A DNA stretch of 64,000 nucleotides from an uncultured Acidobacteriaceae bacterium (GTDB lineage Bacteria; Acidobacteriota; Terriglobia; Terriglobales; Acidobacteriaceae), in the NCBI GenBank assembly GCA_963707325.1, contig CAVPPV010000001.1, forward strand, positions 188,416-252,415, written 5' to 3'. The position numbers were made by a program, and so were the translations under genes. Shown in pieces: positions 3,901-63,593 of this stretch. Below the pieces are notes generated by a model. That model was not told where the DNA came from, did no database searches, and saw only the letters and a program-made list of their open reading frames with translations. Position 1 is the stretch's first letter; each line of letters starts with the position of its first letter.

Positions 3901-4431
3901 ATGTGGAGGGCGGCGGATCGGCTGGCGGGTGGGAAGTTGCCGGGGTGCAAGGAGCGCGGGGAGTGGGCGGAACTTTATTTCATGATGCAGGCGGCGGGAC
4001 GGGGGATGAAGGTGTCGAAGCCGTTTGGGGAGGCGGGGAGATATGACGTGGGGGTAGAGGGGCGCTGCGTGGACAATCAGGGGAAGGTGCTGCGGGTGCA
4101 GGTGAAGTCCACGATTTACAGGCGGCGCGGGGATTGTTACAGCTTGAATGTGATGGGGCCGCAGCGGAAGAAGTATGTGCCGGGGACGGTGGATTTTTTT
4201 GCGGTGTTGCTGATCCCGGTCGATGAGTGGTACATCATTCCGTTCGAGGTGATGGGGAGGAAGAACTTGAGTCTGCACTTCACGCCGAAGAGCAAGCGGC
4301 AGAAGTATGGCGAGTACCGGGAGGCTTGGGATTTGTTGAAGCAGACGGGGTTGACGATTCAGGCGTGTTGCGATGAGGCGTGGCCGGAGGTGGGGACAGA
4401 AACCCAAGATTCCTCGCTCCGCTCGGAATGA
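3901..4431 (+). CDS. PD-(D/E)xK-like nuclease (PDDEXK_5/Hjc-like), intact copy
   Basis: GEWAELYF..RYDVGVE..LRVQVKST fits a D...(E/Q)xK core. GGAGG lies 7 nt before the ATG at 3901. The C-terminal SSLRSE comes from a REP. Confidence 0.65.
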   Translation: MWRAADRLAGGKLPGCKERGEWAELYFMMQAAGRGMKVSKPFGEAGRYDVGVEGRCVDNQGKVLRVQVKSTIYRRRGDCYSLNVMGPQRKKYVPGTVDFFAVLLIPVDEWYIIPFEVMGRKNLSLHFTPKSKRQKYGEYREAWDLLKQTGLTIQACCDEAWPEVGTETQDSSLRSE

Positions 4432-6406: not shown

Positions 6407-6493
6407 GCCATCGTGGCGGAATTGGCAGACGCGCATGGTTCAGGTCCATGTACCGGCAACGGTGTGGGGGTTCGAGTCCCTTCGATGGCACCA
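6407..6493 (+). tRNA. tRNA-Leu (anticodon CAG), CCA encoded
   Basis: Acceptor stem gccatcg/cgatggc. Anticodon stem catgg/ccatg with loop ttCAGgt. Long variable arm; T-loop gttcgagtc; 3' acca. Confidence 0.9.
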
Positions 6494-59895: not shown

Positions 59896-60141
59896 TCGCC
59901 AAAATTCATTTTTTCGATAGCACTTGATAAACCGGGAATCAAGCGCCGTGGCTTGAATGTGTTCTGCCACACTAGTGCGTCCTTCATGGACAGGTTGAAT
60001 ACGCCCATGACGGTTCGCCAGGAGAGGCTCGGTCATGCTCCGGGTTCTCCCGTAAACCTGGCTCACTACACGCATTCGGTGGGCGAGGACAACCGGAAAG
60101 TGGCCGATCAAATGGGAGCGGCTTGGGGTATGGTGAACTAA
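59896..60141 (+). pseudogene. Tyrosine recombinase (phage integrase family) C-terminal remnant
   Basis: GLNVFCHTSASFMDRLNTPMTVRQERLGHAPGSPVNLAHYTH matches the (R)HT..AS..LGH..Y catalytic end. The N-terminal roughly 250 aa are absent and the box Arg is replaced by Cys. Confidence 0.7.
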
Positions 60142-60180: not shown

Positions 60181-60222
60181 GCCTTAAACGACAAACGACC
60201 CGCAAGTTTTTGAACCTGCGGG
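60181..60222 (-). terminator. Outward-facing terminator-like hairpin at the left end of the inverted element
   Basis: On the minus strand: cccgcaggttcaaaaacttgcggg followed by tcgtttgtcgttt. Confidence 0.5.
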
Positions 60223-60455
60223 CCGTCCGGTGGACTGTTTGGGATTGACCAAGAGGTGGTCACTCTACGTGGCCTCTCACGGCGACTCCCGGGTCGGGGC
60301 CGAAGCCCAAGGATGGCAGCCTTCGCACGACCGACGCGATGCCTTCATCCAAACTCACCGGCTAGTGTGCGGGCTGTAGCTGCGGCGCGATCTGACTTTT
60401 TAGATCAGGTCTGCGTCCGAAGCCCCGCTTAGAGCAACCAGCTCTAACTCTCAGC
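60199..60455 (-). ncRNA. Left copy of inverted structured element; candidate 3'UTR RNA of the zinc-ribbon operon (or a terminal inverted repeat)
   Basis: The 55-nt core 60223-60277 is the reverse complement of 62052-62106 with one mismatch. Further shared blocks at 60369-60380 and 60418-60455. Confidence 0.45.
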
Positions 60456-60864
60456 TGTTATCGCTGTACGGGTAATCGTCGATGATGTGCCGCTTGACGA
60501 ACCTCTCCCACCAAGTCCGCGCTGGTGGGCTATCCACGGCTATCCTGGTTACAGGTATTCTCTGTTGCCGGGCAGTGGGTGGCAACTGTTTCGCCTCTGG
60601 TGTGTGCGTTCCATGTGGCTCTGCGGGCGCTGCACTCGGCTGTTGTCTGGGCCTCTCAACTCGGCGAACCCTGATCCTACCATTGGTACCGTAGCCATAG
60701 TAGGTAACTGCGTCGCGGCGTTGTTGTCGGTGCCGCCTAACCCGGTGAACCCCGAGCGTCACACCACAGCCGGTACATCTCACCGTCCGCTCGCCCGTTA
60801 CCATCGTTGCACCACAGAAGCAGTGAAAATGGAATTGTCGCTCGACGGAGACTTCCGGTGGCAT
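60451..60864 (-). CDS. CFCG zinc-ribbon protein paralog 3 (hypothetical)
   Basis: FHFHCFCGATMVTGERTVRCTGCGVTLGV followed by an Arg-rich tract. GGAGG 5 nt before the ATG at 60864. Confidence 0.6.
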   Translation of the reverse strand: MPPEVSVERQFHFHCFCGATMVTGERTVRCTGCGVTLGVHRVRRHRQQRRDAVTYYGYGTNGRIRVRRVERPRQQPSAAPAEPHGTHTPEAKQLPPTARQQRIPVTRIAVDSPPARTWWERFVKRHIIDDYPYSDNS

Positions 60865-60882
60865 GTCGTCCTCCAATCGCTC

Positions 60883-61389
60883 CTACCAATGCAGCAGATC
60901 GTACACGTAGTACAGCAACACAGAGAAAAGGGCCAGGTAAACCAACAGCGTCTTGATGTCCCATGCTTGCAGGTAACCCCAAGTCTCCCGGTGCGGGGGC
61001 ATGTTCCAGTCCAGGCCCCTAAGCAGGCCAATCTCGACGGTCTTTCCACACTTGGCACAAGTCACGACCTTGGCCCGGCTCACGGTCTCTCCCGTCGCTG
61101 GGAGAGGGGCACCACAGAAACATTGAAAATCGCAATTGCACTCGGAAACGATTTTCTCTGTCCCGAATTCTCTCCACCAGGTCAGTCTTTCAGGAGTGAG
61201 TTTCGAGTGCGAGCGGAGGCCATACACCTTCGCTCTCAAGAACACCCTGAATAACGCGAGGCCACCCAAGCCGTAAAGCAACTGACGCCAGCCGCGGTGA
61301 TAAAGAAAAAGGAGGAAGGGCGAAGCTACAAGCGTGACAGCGACAACCTCGCGGAGGGATCGTCCTGTGGAAGTATCACGCGAGGTCAT
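60883..61389 (-). CDS. CFCG zinc-ribbon membrane protein paralog 2 (hypothetical)
   Basis: N-terminal TM segments, CDFQCFCGAPLPATGE..VTCAKCGKTVEI, and C-terminal TM tail LLVYLALFSVLLYYVYDLLHW. GGAGG before the ATG at 61389. Confidence 0.6.
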   Translation of the reverse strand: MTSRDTSTGRSLREVVAVTLVASPFLLFLYHRGWRQLLYGLGGLALFRVFLRAKVYGLRSHSKLTPERLTWWREFGTEKIVSECNCDFQCFCGAPLPATGETVSRAKVVTCAKCGKTVEIGLLRGLDWNMPPHRETWGYLQAWDIKTLLVYLALFSVLLYYVYDLLHW

Positions 61390-61422
61390 GTGCCTGCCTC
61401 CAACCAAGCGTTTTGCTGACTC

Positions 61423-61704
61423 CTAGCAACTCAGCAAGTCGTACAAGTAGTATGCCAACAAAGAGTACAGGATGGAGTAGGTCATCGGCTTTTCGACCAG
61501 TTGCAGCACATCGTCAGCACCTATACGCGCAGCTGAGTACCAGCGGTGGTGGGTGCGCTTCCGGCGGTGTCGGTGAGCGCGCCGCCGAATCTCGAAGGTC
61601 AGGCCACAGTTGGCACAACTCGCCGTCTTTTCGGTCGCTACGATGGGCGCACCGCAGAAGCATTGAAGGTGATACTCGACAACGGTTTCCGGTGCCGGAG
61701 TCAT
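61423..61704 (-). CDS. CFCG zinc-ribbon tail-anchored protein paralog 1 (hypothetical)
   Basis: YHLQCFCGAPIVATEKTASCANCGLTFEI, RRRAHRHRRKRTHHR, and C-terminal TM tail YSILYSLLAYYLYDLLSC. Confidence 0.6.
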   Translation of the reverse strand: MTPAPETVVEYHLQCFCGAPIVATEKTASCANCGLTFEIRRRAHRHRRKRTHHRWYSAARIGADDVLQLVEKPMTYSILYSLLAYYLYDLLSC

Positions 61705-61806
61705 TTCGTGGCGCTCCAACTGGACTGCTTACGGCACAGCATACGCCCGGGGAGCCCTAGTGGGAATGTATTTGTTCAGCAAGGGTGACCCGGCACCAGA
61801 GTGTCA

Positions 61807-61835
61807 TTGACACAAAATGCGAGAGCGGATAATCT
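61807..61835 (+). promoter_or_regulatory. Sigma70-like promoter (TTGACA-N17-TAATCT, or N15-GATAAT) facing the right element copy
   Basis: TTGACA at 61807-61812; GATAAT at 61828-61833; TAATCT at 61830-61835. Confidence 0.5.
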
Positions 61836-61841
61836 GCGCTT

Positions 61842-62144
61842 AACACCGGAAAGGAGGTGGTCGGATGACAAGTTCAGAAGGCAGTAGTAGACGTACCCAA
61901 AGACCGGGTGAGGTGGCTGAGACTTAGAGCAGGTCGCTCTAAGCGGGGCTTCGGGCGTTTTTCGACGTTCGAGGCTACAGCCCGCATACTATCGGTGAAT
62001 AAGGATTGATTCCGCCTGACGCAGGTCGGTCAGGAGCCCGGAGTAGCCAGTAGAGGCCACGTAGAGTGACCACCTCTTGGTCAATCCCAAACAGTCCACC
62101 GGGCGGCCCACAGGTTTAATAGCCTGTGGGCTGTTCTATTTTTC
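61842..62144 (+). ncRNA. Right copy of inverted structured element; candidate RNA of about 300 nt from promoter to terminator
   Basis: Homology to the left copy spans 61915-62130. Hairpin ttagagc/gctctaa. The 55-nt core. Terminator hairpin at 62107-62130 plus ctgttctattttt. Confidence 0.45.
62107..62144 (+). terminator. Outward-facing terminator-like hairpin at the right end of the inverted element
   Basis: cccacagg-tttaatag-cctgtggg followed by ctgttctattttt. Confidence 0.55.
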
Positions 62145-62255
62145 ACCGGGGCAGAAGGCCGCCCGGAATTTTCAATGAGCGCTAAAGCCCTGATTTCGAC
62201 AATAAGCTTTGGCTCGGAGTACCCTTCACAGAAGTAATTCTGCCGAGGCCCAACT

Positions 62256-62828
62256 ATGTGGGACAACGCCAAGTCTGTGGAAGCGGCAATCAAGCGACTG
62301 ACCCGCGAGATCGAGGAAATTGATGACTTCTTCTACAAGGGCAAGGAAAACGATGACCGCGTCCTGTATGCCGGGATGCTCGAACGCAAGCGTGATGATG
62401 TGGTGCGTTCGGCAGTGTTGCAAATGCATACGGCCATCGAAGACCTTCTGAACTCGCTCATCACTTTCCACATTACCGGGGACACTCGTCGCTGGCGCTC
62501 CCCGCGCAGCCTGTCAGCGCGAGCGTTGCGCAAAATGCTTGTTGGTGCCGGCAGCCTTGGTTTCGAGATGAAACTTAACTTTGCCCTTGCGCTTAGGGTT
62601 ATCAACAACAAAACAAAAGAAAGACTTGCCATCTTGAACACCGTACGCAACAAGTGCAGCCATAATTGGGTGCTCAAAGTACCTGTGCGCTATGGGAAAC
62701 GACCTGCGCAAAAAAAACCTCCTCTACTTCTCTATGAAGGCCGCGATCTTCACAGCGTCGCGGCGCTCAAAGACTTCACGAGCGAATACGGCGGTATTTA
62801 CGTCAGGCTGTACATGGAAATCCCTTAG
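62256..62828 (+). CDS. HEPN-like (Rx4H motif) protein, hypothetical
   Basis: All-helical-looking 190-aa ORF with LNTVRNKCSHNW (R-x4-H, RN..H.W as in DUF86-type HEPN). Codon usage looks lower in GC than the core genes. Confidence 0.55.
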   Translation: MWDNAKSVEAAIKRLTREIEEIDDFFYKGKENDDRVLYAGMLERKRDDVVRSAVLQMHTAIEDLLNSLITFHITGDTRRWRSPRSLSARALRKMLVGAGSLGFEMKLNFALALRVINNKTKERLAILNTVRNKCSHNWVLKVPVRYGKRPAQKKPPLLLYEGRDLHSVAALKDFTSEYGGIYVRLYMEIP

Positions 62829-63073
62829 CTGGGTTCCTCCTGCTTGCTTCCCTTGTGCAGAGTCTATGGGTTTTTCTGTGACTGTTAGCTTGACTATTAG
62901 AGAGTCTGGAAGCGAGTTGTGCGGCTAGAATCCTTTGATTCTGCTAGAGATAGTGTGGAAGTGTGCGTCAATCGCACATTAGTACGAAATCGGCCTGTGC
63001 GTCAACCGGCACGAAAGTGGGTGTCGAGAGTTGCAACCCCCCGGTCCTGTACGTCGCGCTGAACAAGAAAAAT

Positions 63074-63183
63074 CCACCACGGAGACACGGAGGCACGGAG
63101 GAAGATCGAGAAAGGACCTGTCACGCAGAACCCTGATCTGAAGTTCCAGCATGGCTTTTCTCCGTGACTCTGTGACTCCGTGG
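63074..63183. repeat. MITE-like palindromic element (ccacggagacacggagg arms)
   Basis: Left arm 63074-63101 is complementary to right arm 63160-63183. Same arm family as 14616-14800 and 53925-53945. Confidence 0.7.
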
Positions 63184-63209
63184 TAGATTTTGAATTTGGT
63201 GCTGGATCG

Positions 63210-63593
63210 ATGACGATGGGAACCGCCTCAAAGCCGTCAACGGTGGGAGATATTCTGCGCCAGCGCTGTCCGCGCTGCCGCATGGGAAACATCTATCGTT
63301 ATTCCATCTTCCGGGGATTTCCCAAGATGCACGAGCGCTGTCCCGTCTGCGATCTCAAGTTTGATCGTGAGCCGGGCTACTTCCTGGGCGCGATGTATGT
63401 CAGTTACGGTTTGGGGATCGTAATGGTTGGGCTGATCGCGGCGCTGCTGTGGTGGGTGACCGGATGGTGGATCACGAAAGATACGATCTGGGCCGTGGTG
63501 ATATTCCTGCCGCTCGCGCCTACGATCACACTGTTGGCGCGCGTGCTCTGGATCTATCTTGACCAGACTGTCGATCCGGAACGGCGGCCCTAG
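63210..63593 (+). CDS. DUF983 domain membrane protein
   Basis: CPRCRMG..x..CPVCDL zinc ribbon followed by two TM helices. Confidence 0.75.
   Translation: MTMGTASKPSTVGDILRQRCPRCRMGNIYRYSIFRGFPKMHERCPVCDLKFDREPGYFLGAMYVSYGLGIVMVGLIAALLWWVTGWWITKDTIWAVVIFLPLAPTITLLARVLWIYLDQTVDPERRP

Follow-up and report, generated by a model that had tools for sequence, protein, structure and literature searches.

A Terriglobia-restricted family of small zinc-ribbon proteins, encoded in an A-then-B operon, one copy of which lies in a composite insertion into a conserved RNA gene

The described systems closest to the proteins reported here include the zinc-binding domain of RNA polymerase (RNAP) beta-prime, which is placed at the RNA exit and makes contact with nascent RNA as well as upstream DNA, the ZAS (zf-HC2) anti-sigma factors, and small free-standing zinc-ribbon proteins such as LysW. 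The proteins are encoded by three tandem genes, named par1, par2 and par3 (Table 1), in a 64,000-nucleotide stretch of DNA from an uncultured Acidobacteriaceae bacterium of the Terriglobia (contig CAVPPV010000001.1), the whole of which is referred to as the window. Terriglobia are abundant in soils, and hardly any of the genes specific to their lineage have been characterised. On comparative evidence, par1-par3 are functional genes of a small, undescribed, Terriglobia-restricted family, and the window cassette is one copy of an ancient operon type in which a type-A gene is followed by a type-B gene. The overall picture, to which we give moderate confidence, is that of a real lineage-restricted A-then-B family that would act as a membrane-tethered module binding nucleic acid or the transcription machinery, and that was brought to this site within a composite insertion; most of the uncertainty concerns the ligand. 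We describe, in short, a new family with a well-known fold, a distinctive operon logic and a possible likeness to a polymerase domain.

The preliminary description of this locus, made from the letters of the window, had noted three closely spaced open reading frames (ORFs) with their gaps and GGAGG motifs, the ribbon strings, Arg/His-rich tracts and related C-terminal tails, all of which hold on re-reading the letters. Spacers of 33 nt (par1/par2) and 18 nt (par2/par3) separate the genes, GGAGG lies 6-7 nt ahead of the ATGs at 61389 (par2) and 60864 (par3), and a TTG at 61719, upstream of the par1 ATG, is an alternative start that would give 98 aa. The ribbon common to the three products is C-x-C-G...C-x2-C-G; in a MAFFT alignment par2 and par3 display 38% and 31% identity to par1, respectively, and the invariant columns cluster in C-F-C-G-A...C-x2-C-G-x-T. 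In par1, the ribbon cysteines (C15, C17, C30 and C33) are followed by the RRRAHRHRRKRTHHR tract and a weakly hydrophobic C-terminal tail, ...LLAYYLYDLLSC. The ribbon of par2 contains a 6-residue insertion between the Cys pairs (x18 spacing), its tail is ...LLYYVYDLLHW, and hydropathy reveals three hydrophobic segments (residues 11-32, 37-53 and 142-168; KD17 up to 1.98), the C-terminal one being strongly hydrophobic (KD17 1.96). The C-terminal anchors proposed earlier for par1 and par2 are clearly predicted in par2 and only probable in par1, whose tail is marginal, and the extra N-terminal transmembrane (TM) segments attributed to par2 correspond to the first two of its segments. The hydrophobic tails of orthologous A-type proteins reach KD17 values of 1.3-3.0. 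Hydropathy shows no TM segment in par3, where an N-terminal SVERQFxF is followed by the ribbon, HRVRRHRQQRRD, a YYG...VRRVER repeat, a disordered linker and the C-terminal WWERFVKRHIIDDYPYSD; this ending recurs in the homologues P0012, P0020 and P0022, and the C-terminal peptide of par3 is complete to within ~1-2 residues of its orthologues.

The family was delimited by a profile search of 5.8 billion proteins, which returned 45 homologues with E-values down to 1e-43, 'hypothetical protein' being the label of almost all those for which the source gives a name, and none with a precomputed Pfam domain, and by an exhaustive HMMER search of 1.84 billion cluster representatives, with 132 representatives at E<=1e-3; a few of the weakest of these are multi-stretch matches in long proteins (597-912 aa) that look like C2H2 artefacts. 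The sources are apparently all Terriglobia and soil metagenomes. When the ribbon profile was run against the six-frame translation of the window, only par1-par3 were recovered (E 1e-19 to 1e-26). Columns E8, C15, C17, G18, C30, C33 and G34 are invariant, the four Cys in 43 sequences. Compared with orthologues from other loci, the genes have dN/dS ratios (Nei-Gojobori) of 0.24-0.43; for the closest relative, with 92.8% of nucleotides identical, the ratio is 0.26. These values are well below 1, and the genes are therefore under purifying selection. Furthermore, independent assembly of two other read sets (L016, L017) yielded the 1.5-kb cassette in identical form, both junctions included. The earlier reading as a genuine family of C4 zinc-ribbon proteins with basic tails is supported; par2 is without such a tail.

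For par1-par3, nothing above cut-off was found in Pfam, NCBIfam, PADLOC or PHROGs, in agreement with the earlier statement that they belong to no described family or system; PADLOC gave no match at E<=1 for par1-par3 or for the HEPN-like neighbour, and neither the IMG/VR scan nor a tblastn search of PLSDB plasmids detected a family member. Two candidate identities were discarded: DmmA-like_C matches 22 members (best E 0.0018), repeatedly and only at the Cys knuckles, and the C2H2 arrays found in PDB (E to 1e-14) match a linker-like half-motif, 'TGEKxxxCxxCG', over and over along 15-20 columns.

AlphaFold2, run with the family alignment, gave a confident model of par3 for residues 11-40 only, the remainder being predicted as disordered. 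Residues 11-38 form four short strands in two hairpins (pLDDT ~90), that is, a predicted zinc ribbon of the C4 kind, with two knuckles, CxC and CxxC, on the two predicted beta-hairpins. The 13 PDB matches of this model in Foldseek were generic ribbons only (E>1), with LysW at the top. Most B-type relatives possess, in addition, a C-terminal domain absent from par3, confidently predicted as an SH3-like barrel; in Foldseek it comes closest to the nitrile hydratase beta C-terminus, eL21, PetP, YorP and the Spt5 KOW domain (E 3e-3 to 8e-2). This ~70-residue barrel (GVHVKVGPTRPDGKPHPHAGKTGRIT...FIWVSL-CLE-LPE) has no Pfam model; it corresponds to residues ~140-207 of P0017, is also found in P0067, P0077, P0089 and P0100 (loci L153-L182), and is seen behind a B-type ribbon, by itself, in tandem loci and joined to response-regulator receiver domains.

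These features place the family beside several described groups without merging it with any of them. HVO_2753_ZBP, DUF7129, DUF5817, Zn_ribbon_3, DmmA-like_C and LysW have the same C4 two-hairpin ribbon of ~30 residues and small size, and the Pfam families among them match individual members weakly (E 1e-2 to 4e-4, none at the curated cut-off), but none of them has the SVERQF motif, the RRVRRHRQ tail, the tail anchor or the A-then-B operon. The ZAS anti-sigma factors likewise place a cytoplasmic zinc site at the N-terminus, ahead of a membrane anchor, and extracytoplasmic function (ECF) sigma genes are neighbours in several family loci; however, ZAS proteins are helical with an HxxxCxxC motif, whereas the family has a beta-ribbon with CxC...CxxC. 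Indeed, zf-HC2 is not among the 25 of 28 matching Pfam families listed for 43 members, the HxxxCxxC motif is absent, and the window contains no sigma-factor gene adjoining the cassette. As for Spt4/Spt5, eL21 and zinc-ribbon ribosomal proteins, B-type relatives similarly pair a basic zinc ribbon with an SH3-like barrel, although the likeness is at the fold level only and par1-par3 have no barrel.

Two subfamilies can be recognised. Type A, typically of 90-100 aa and with one to three ribbons, follows the consensus ...VVE-Y-x-F-x-CFCGAP-I-V-A-T-E-K-T...C-x2-CG...IRRV+R..., then a hydrophobic tail often ending in YDLL. Type B reads M-x-SE-I-SVERQFRF-x-C-S-CGAT, then RRVRRHRQ-x3-D-S-V-A-YYG...LPVRRVE, and ends in a variable, exchangeable C-terminus: most relatives have the SH3-like barrel there, some have a TM helix, and par3 has the WWxRFxKRHIIDDYPYSD peptide. 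When ribbon and C-domain profiles were run over every family locus, a B gene was found immediately behind an A gene in ~15 distinct loci, among them L003 (A of 112 aa, B of 221 aa), L007 (97 and 121 aa), L012 (228 aa, a par1-type fused to a par2-type, and 216 aa), L138 (211 aa with three ribbons and a tail, and 168 aa) and L142 (90 and 220 aa); clear exceptions to this order were mostly at contig edges. In P0002 the par2 type is fused behind a par1-type ribbon. The preliminary description had taken the three genes to be amplified in situ; the subfamily structure, the recurrent A-then-B pair and the P0002 fusion lead us to abandon that proposal in favour of old, distinct subfamilies, as divergent as the 38% and 31% identities indicate and paired in ~15 different loci. 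An additional unannotated N-terminal module, a hydrophobic helix with RLPE-QRERF-EEW-SH...G-R/K...GC, is present on the A- or B-type proteins P0051, P0083, P0095 and P0098.

No single neighbourhood is conserved among the loci of the relatives. The pair that includes P0017, a protein indexed in 61 blocks of the collection, lies directly after dnaA in 6 of the 6 places listed; other pairs follow a GH3 glycosidase gene or are flanked by integrase and resolvase fragments and by HigB/HigA-like genes. Among 14 representative loci, about half have the pair close to genes for ECF sigma factors, an M50-protease/receiver/GerE fusion, DUF3857-transglutaminase/TPR proteins, exosortase EpsH/EpsI or Tad-type components. 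In one Terriglobia lineage (L001-L006, L144) the A-B pair is located immediately 3' of dnaA and is followed by a DUF3857-transglutaminase gene; the site directly downstream of dnaA is the position of dnaN in many bacteria.

The closest relative of the window cassette (L189-L193) has an A gene of 95 aa and a middle gene with two ribbons and a tail, lacking N-terminal TM segments, which replaces the par2 type. The copies share a sharp boundary 137 nt upstream of A, and the left flanks differ between samples; one of them contains an IS91-type transposase and an integrase, and integrase fragments lie to the right. The cassette therefore resides in variable DNA and is itself quickly remodelled. The boundary, which may be an attachment or insertion site, corresponds to position 3948 of L189, and a 99-nt segment (3948-4046) is present twice in L193.

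With respect to the related loci L042, L054, L022 and L103, the window carries 2.5 kb of extra DNA at 60456-62969, comprising par3-par2-par1, an intact copy, on the plus strand and with its own promoter, of a conserved RNA gene here called X, and a gene for a 190-aa HEPN-like protein. This comparison confirms the earlier proposal that the cassette belongs to inserted DNA and has as its neighbour a gene bearing an Rx4H (HEPN-type) motif. The cassette is bracketed by an inverted repeat of ~260 nt, whose arms (60194-60455 and 61916-62135) are 84-90% identical, with indels. The left arm is the native X copy (X'), which retains X positions ~97-330 with the terminator, lies directly after par3 in sense and is collinear with an integrase remnant as in L042 (86.5% identity); a remnant of the native X promoter with the first nucleotides still adjoins the DUF983 gene, as in related genomes, and forms the right edge of the insertion. 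X' is nearest to the copies in L042, L120 and L054, and the intact X to those in L122, L099, L084 and L097 (88.7-89.7% identity), and because of these different affinities the intact copy is considered foreign. The insertion thus split native X, replacing ~90 nt of it, and brought an intact X in inverted orientation, which accounts for the inverted repeat around the cassette; the intact foreign X presumably substitutes for the disrupted native one. The junction lies at ...GATAACA followed by GCTGAGAG, and the stop codon of par3 (TGA) is therefore X-derived. Consequently to this arrangement, the operon is followed in sense by the 3' domain of X, and the terminator of X' is the only recognisable one behind it. 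Upstream, no consensus sigma-70 match was found in 61705-61806; the last ~50 nt before the par1 ATG (GGGCGTATGCT...), which by-eye comparison shows to be partly common to the cassette of the closest relative, may contain the cassette promoter. BLAST homology to this relative begins 9 nt inside par1.

Table 1. Coordinates of the cassette, the X copies and the adjoining features in the window.
Feature	Position	Strand	Description
par1	61423-61704	minus	93 aa from ATG; type-A zinc-ribbon protein; P0001
par2	60883-61389	minus	168 aa; type-A variant; P0005
par3	60451-60864	minus	137 aa; type-B zinc-ribbon protein
Cassette upstream region	61705-61806	minus	between par1 start and promoter of the intact X copy
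X' (native X copy, 5'-truncated)	60194-60455	minus	X positions ~97-330 with terminator; left repeat arm
Intact X copy	61807-62140	plus	right repeat arm; own promoter and terminator
Intact X, promoter-like TTGACA-N17-GATAAT	61807-61833	plus	
Intact X, 5' end	~61843	plus	
Intact X, 20-codon ORF	61865-61927	plus	MTSSEGSSRRTQRPGEVAET
Intact X, partner of the Shine-Dalgarno (SD)-like sequence	62068-82	plus	GACCACCTCT, pairing with the SD-like GGAGGTGGTC
Intact X, intrinsic terminator	62101-62136	plus	
Native X promoter remnant and first nucleotides	62970-63019	minus	TTGACG-N17-TACTAAT at 62978-63005
Tyrosine-integrase C-terminal remnant (presumed)	59953-60141	plus	62 aa; 53 nt from the X' 3' end
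HEPN-like gene	62256-62828	plus	190 aa; Rx4H motif RNKCSH
DUF983 gene	63180-63593	plus	Pfam DUF983 E 9e-8; usual divergent neighbour of X

The context of the cassette in the window differs from every context seen in the relatives. No family member was found in any of the 120 X loci listed, and none of 60 family loci (441 kb) contains X, the HEPN-like gene, the integrase remnant or DUF983; given that neither survey shows co-occurrence, we regard the adjacency as an accident of the insertion rather than a system, and the functional link to the flanking elements raised in the preliminary description was not upheld. The HEPN-like gene was rejected as a partner on the same ground, and an integrase-driven island because the integrase remnant is also present in L042, which is devoid of the cassette. 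Other interpretations of the repeat were discarded as well. An invertible switch is at odds with the same orientation at both junctions in two independent assemblies, with arms that are only 84-90% identical and differ by indels, and with a sole recombinase gene that is a 62-aa remnant; a multi-copy miniature inverted-repeat transposable element does not agree with a repeat that is present only twice in the window and once in each 8-kb locus elsewhere; and neither ARAGORN nor Rfam finds a tRNA or tmRNA near the cassette.

The one reproducible similarity of the family ribbon, and the sole one over its full length, is to the RNAP beta-prime/gamma zinc-binding domain (E. coli residues ~68-103). 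This domain is the best full-length PDB match, and the sole NCBIfam match, of the B-type ribbons par3 and P0017. A search of PDB with the family profile (hmmsearch) returned many RNAP entries at E 0.037-2, always at chain residues ~68-102; phmmer with par3 alone gave an RNAP match at E 0.056 (fhCfCGatmvtgertvrCtgCGVtlgvhRVRRHRq aligned with weCwCGkykrvrhrgivCerCGVevtesRVRRHRm); and the NCBIfam models matched by par3 and P0017 were those of rpoC1, at the same residues (E 0.055-0.073). The Cys spacing C-x-C-G-x11-C-x2-C-G-V is shared, and a basic stretch follows at equal distance: par1 and par3 have C-x-C-x12-C-x2-C, with RRRAHRH in par1 and, in par3, an RVRRHR identical to that of cyanobacterial gamma, unlike par2, which has x18 spacing and no basic stretch. 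In hhalign, the result was 87% probability over 36 columns for the E. coli beta-prime segment, versus 11% over 16 columns for Rpb12 and 53% over 11 columns for LysW as controls. When the polymerase segment was shuffled with Cys fixed and composition kept, 1-6 of 2000 shuffles reached the real score (p ~0.0005-0.003), which was 17.5-18.2 bits against a shuffle mean of 0-2 (sd 4.6). Pfam RNA_pol_Rpb1_1 is not among the families listed at E<=0.1 for members, and the 13 PDB matches in Foldseek include no RNAP beta-prime chain, which is a weak test for a small domain inside a 1400-residue chain. Besides the match E-values of 0.04-0.07 and the longer inter-Cys loop of par2, the family proteins differ from beta-prime in being free-standing, of 90-260 aa, with membrane anchors or other C-terminal modules.

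In the mechanism that we propose, the ribbon and the Arg-rich tail would form the working surface, and the partner would be polyanionic, most probably RNA or DNA, or else the transcription apparatus; the beta-prime likeness fits such nucleic-acid binding, the beta-prime domain being positioned by the RNA exit and the upstream DNA. The A proteins would keep the ribbon activity at the cytoplasmic face of the membrane, B would pair or compete with A through its homologous ribbon, and the variable C-terminus of B would supply the input or output, as a sensor or effector. Several observations weigh against this picture. The hydropathy of the par1 tail is marginal (residues 77-93, KD17 1.21), and par2 has GLLRGLDW in place of the Arg-rich tail. 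The A-B interaction is proposed purely from paralogy and gene order, and the closest relative has, besides a replaced middle gene, a B gene cut to 34 aa by a frameshift, so that B is dispensable at least there. No significant homology points to any ligand (E >= 0.04 for beta-prime), and the beta-prime likeness is a suggestive lead that was noticed post hoc and stays below every significance threshold. Regarding the insertion, inverted copies do not follow from simple site-specific, single-crossover or Campbell-type integration.

Several other explanations were weighed. The ribbon might itself be an offshoot or mimic of the beta-prime zinc-binding domain, with A and B as membrane-tethered transcription regulators that would bind, or compete for, a partner of the RNA-exit face (nascent RNA, upstream DNA, a sigma/anti-sigma or termination factor) and function by analogy with membrane-anchored anti-sigma factors. 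We consider this rather unlikely: the likeness arose in three independent searches and in the shuffle test, ECF sigma genes adjoin the pair in several loci, as does the M50 site-2-protease/receiver/GerE fusion gene, and the B-type C-domain is fused to receiver domains in some relatives; conversely, all E-values exceed 0.03, RNA_pol_Rpb1_1 is missing from the Pfam matches listed at E<=0.1, there is no zf-HC2 (HxxxCxxC) motif, no sigma gene lies near the window cassette, and the neighbourhoods are inconsistent (dnaA, GH3 glycosidase, integrases). A more elaborate version, to which we assign a low probability, would have the ribbon as a detached copy of the beta-prime domain, presented by membrane-tethered A and B regulators as a decoy of the RNA-exit channel that would capture nascent RNA, an anti-terminator, or a sigma or termination factor, all of it carried by an element that inserts into a small RNA (sRNA) gene and brings a replacement copy. 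If true, the beta-prime likeness would mean a new way of coupling transcription to the membrane, the ribbon of this family being the only thing found outside the polymerase that resembles its nascent-RNA-contacting zinc domain.

The cassette could instead be a small mobile toxin-antitoxin, abortive-infection or defence module, in which the membrane protein would act as a toxin under the control of the soluble ribbon protein, perhaps in cooperation with the HEPN-like gene. Its place in inserted DNA beside an Rx4H gene, the integrase fragments, IS91-type transposase, resolvase and HigB/HigA-like genes beside relatives, and the sharp boundary, varying left flanks and quick remodelling of gene content in L189-L193 would suit such a module, but PADLOC gave no match, no viral (IMG/VR) or plasmid copies were found, the HEPN-like gene is never with the family elsewhere and is solitary in its other contexts, some homologous A proteins have three ribbons, which is not toxin-like, and other copies occupy apparently stable chromosomal positions, e.g., directly after dnaA; we therefore find it improbable. 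A role as zinc- or redox-switched holdase-type chaperones or envelope-biogenesis accessory factors, acting at the membrane in exosortase, exopolysaccharide or Tad-pilus loci, seems very unlikely. The ribbon followed by a long disordered region recalls the zinc ribbon and disordered tail of M. tuberculosis Ruc, the precedent for this proposal (PMC7448276), and genes for exosortase EpsH/EpsI, DUF3857-transglutaminase, T2SSF or RcpC occur in about half of the loci surveyed; nevertheless, the likeness to Ruc-type ribbons is only generic, the window copy has no envelope-type neighbours of this kind, and the strongly conserved Arg-rich motif suggests a polyanion rather than an unfolded protein. We give least credence to the view that the insertion carries the ORFs along as passengers, decaying or without function. 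The own stop codon and terminator of par3 were lost to the junction, the B gene is a pseudogene in the closest relative, and par3 is on record from a Logan assembly only, not from NCBI or ENA, so that the deposited annotation apparently did not call it, at least with this start; against this, the three frames are intact with ribosome-binding sites, dN/dS is well below 1, and the C-terminal peptide of par3 is near-complete compared with its orthologues. If none of these functional proposals holds, par1-par3 simply represent a new small zinc-ribbon family; in any case, the ~130 representatives with their fixed A-then-B operon logic define a compact and experimentally accessible one.

The gene interrupted by the insertion is at least as interesting, in our opinion, as the ribbon proteins themselves. 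X is a ~310-nt element found once per locus (L018-L137), with stretches of 25-50 nt identical across genera, and exact matches to its 25-nt repeat core occur in at least 120 species-representative genomes, nearly all Terriglobia/Acidobacteriota. Its aligned copies display a promoter-like TTGAC-N17-TAnnAT, variable hairpins and a terminator with a covarying stem; the 5' GGAGGUGGUC pairs with the 3' GACCACCUCU, other invariant long-range helices are present, and the long-range helices sequester an SD-like sequence. X is, accordingly to these features, a strongly conserved RNA gene, and the splitting of the native copy with its presumed replacement by a foreign one constitutes an unusual and informative rearrangement. 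In 97 copies an SD-ATG with an ORF of 18-22 codons (MTSS[D/E]-variable Cys/Ser/Gly-RPGEVAET) is located at the same position. Because the length of its variable part (18-30 nt) changes only in multiples of three (85 copies), X may represent either a dual-function RNA or a small-protein mRNA whose structured 3' part is highly conserved; alternatively, the length pattern could stem from slippage of NGT triplets.

Rfam contains no family that X matches above threshold. The actinobacterial sRNA Ms_IGR-5 (RF02471) scored 19.3 bits (gathering 45; E 0.022 in a 421-nt search), with its model matching 61843-62139 end to end; both RNAs have the 5' ACAC-GGAAGGAGGUGGUC, GUGAGGUGGCUG, AAUCCC...CAGUC-ACC and the terminal hairpin, and X differs by ~110 extra nt in the middle and by the conserved 18-22-codon ORF. 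The papers found to mention Ms_IGR-5 do no more than list it among Rfam matches.

The usual neighbour of X on its 5' side is a divergent DUF983 gene, which in 17 of 19 related loci starts at a distance of 65-170 nt from the X 5' end; on the 3' side, some genomes have an integrase remnant 61-71 nt past the X 3' end, followed by homologues of the 460-, 271-, 416- and 636-aa proteins of the window. In the window, the 62-aa ORF that we take to be a tyrosine-integrase remnant, from its C-terminal sequence pattern, has no match in Pfam and is 93.5% identical to its counterpart in L042, which lies 61 nt from X; L042 has no full-length integrase ORF beside X. The presence of a remnant in L042, which is without the cassette, indicates that the remnant predates the insertion. 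Remnants recur 53-71 nt from the X 3' end in several genomes (L042, ~4030-4240; L103), and this recurrence suggests that X, in the manner of tRNA and tmRNA genes, has been used as a target for integration.

The HEPN-like protein scores 12 bits against Pfam Abi_2 (E 0.19; cut-off 25.6). It has 558 homologues, of which the best 120 are 62-87% identical and none of those 120 has a Pfam domain. Elsewhere (L183-L188) the gene is solitary in unrelated contexts, once beside a type III restriction-modification system, and DNA homology is limited to the gene and 64 nt upstream; it looks like a mobile single-gene module. The block at 62-63 kb that contains it has the lowest GC content of the window (0.524). 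The protein encoded by the DUF983 gene has a CxxC...CxxC motif followed by membrane segments, and a 35-nt inverted repeat (63069-63103 and 63157-63191, 86% complementary, 53 nt apart) is placed immediately upstream of this gene and runs over its start. Finally, an Acido-Lenti-1 RNA (Rfam RF01687, 41.7 bits) at 930-976 and a tRNA-Leu(CAG) at 6407-6493, both on the plus strand, are consistent with an acidobacterial chromosome.

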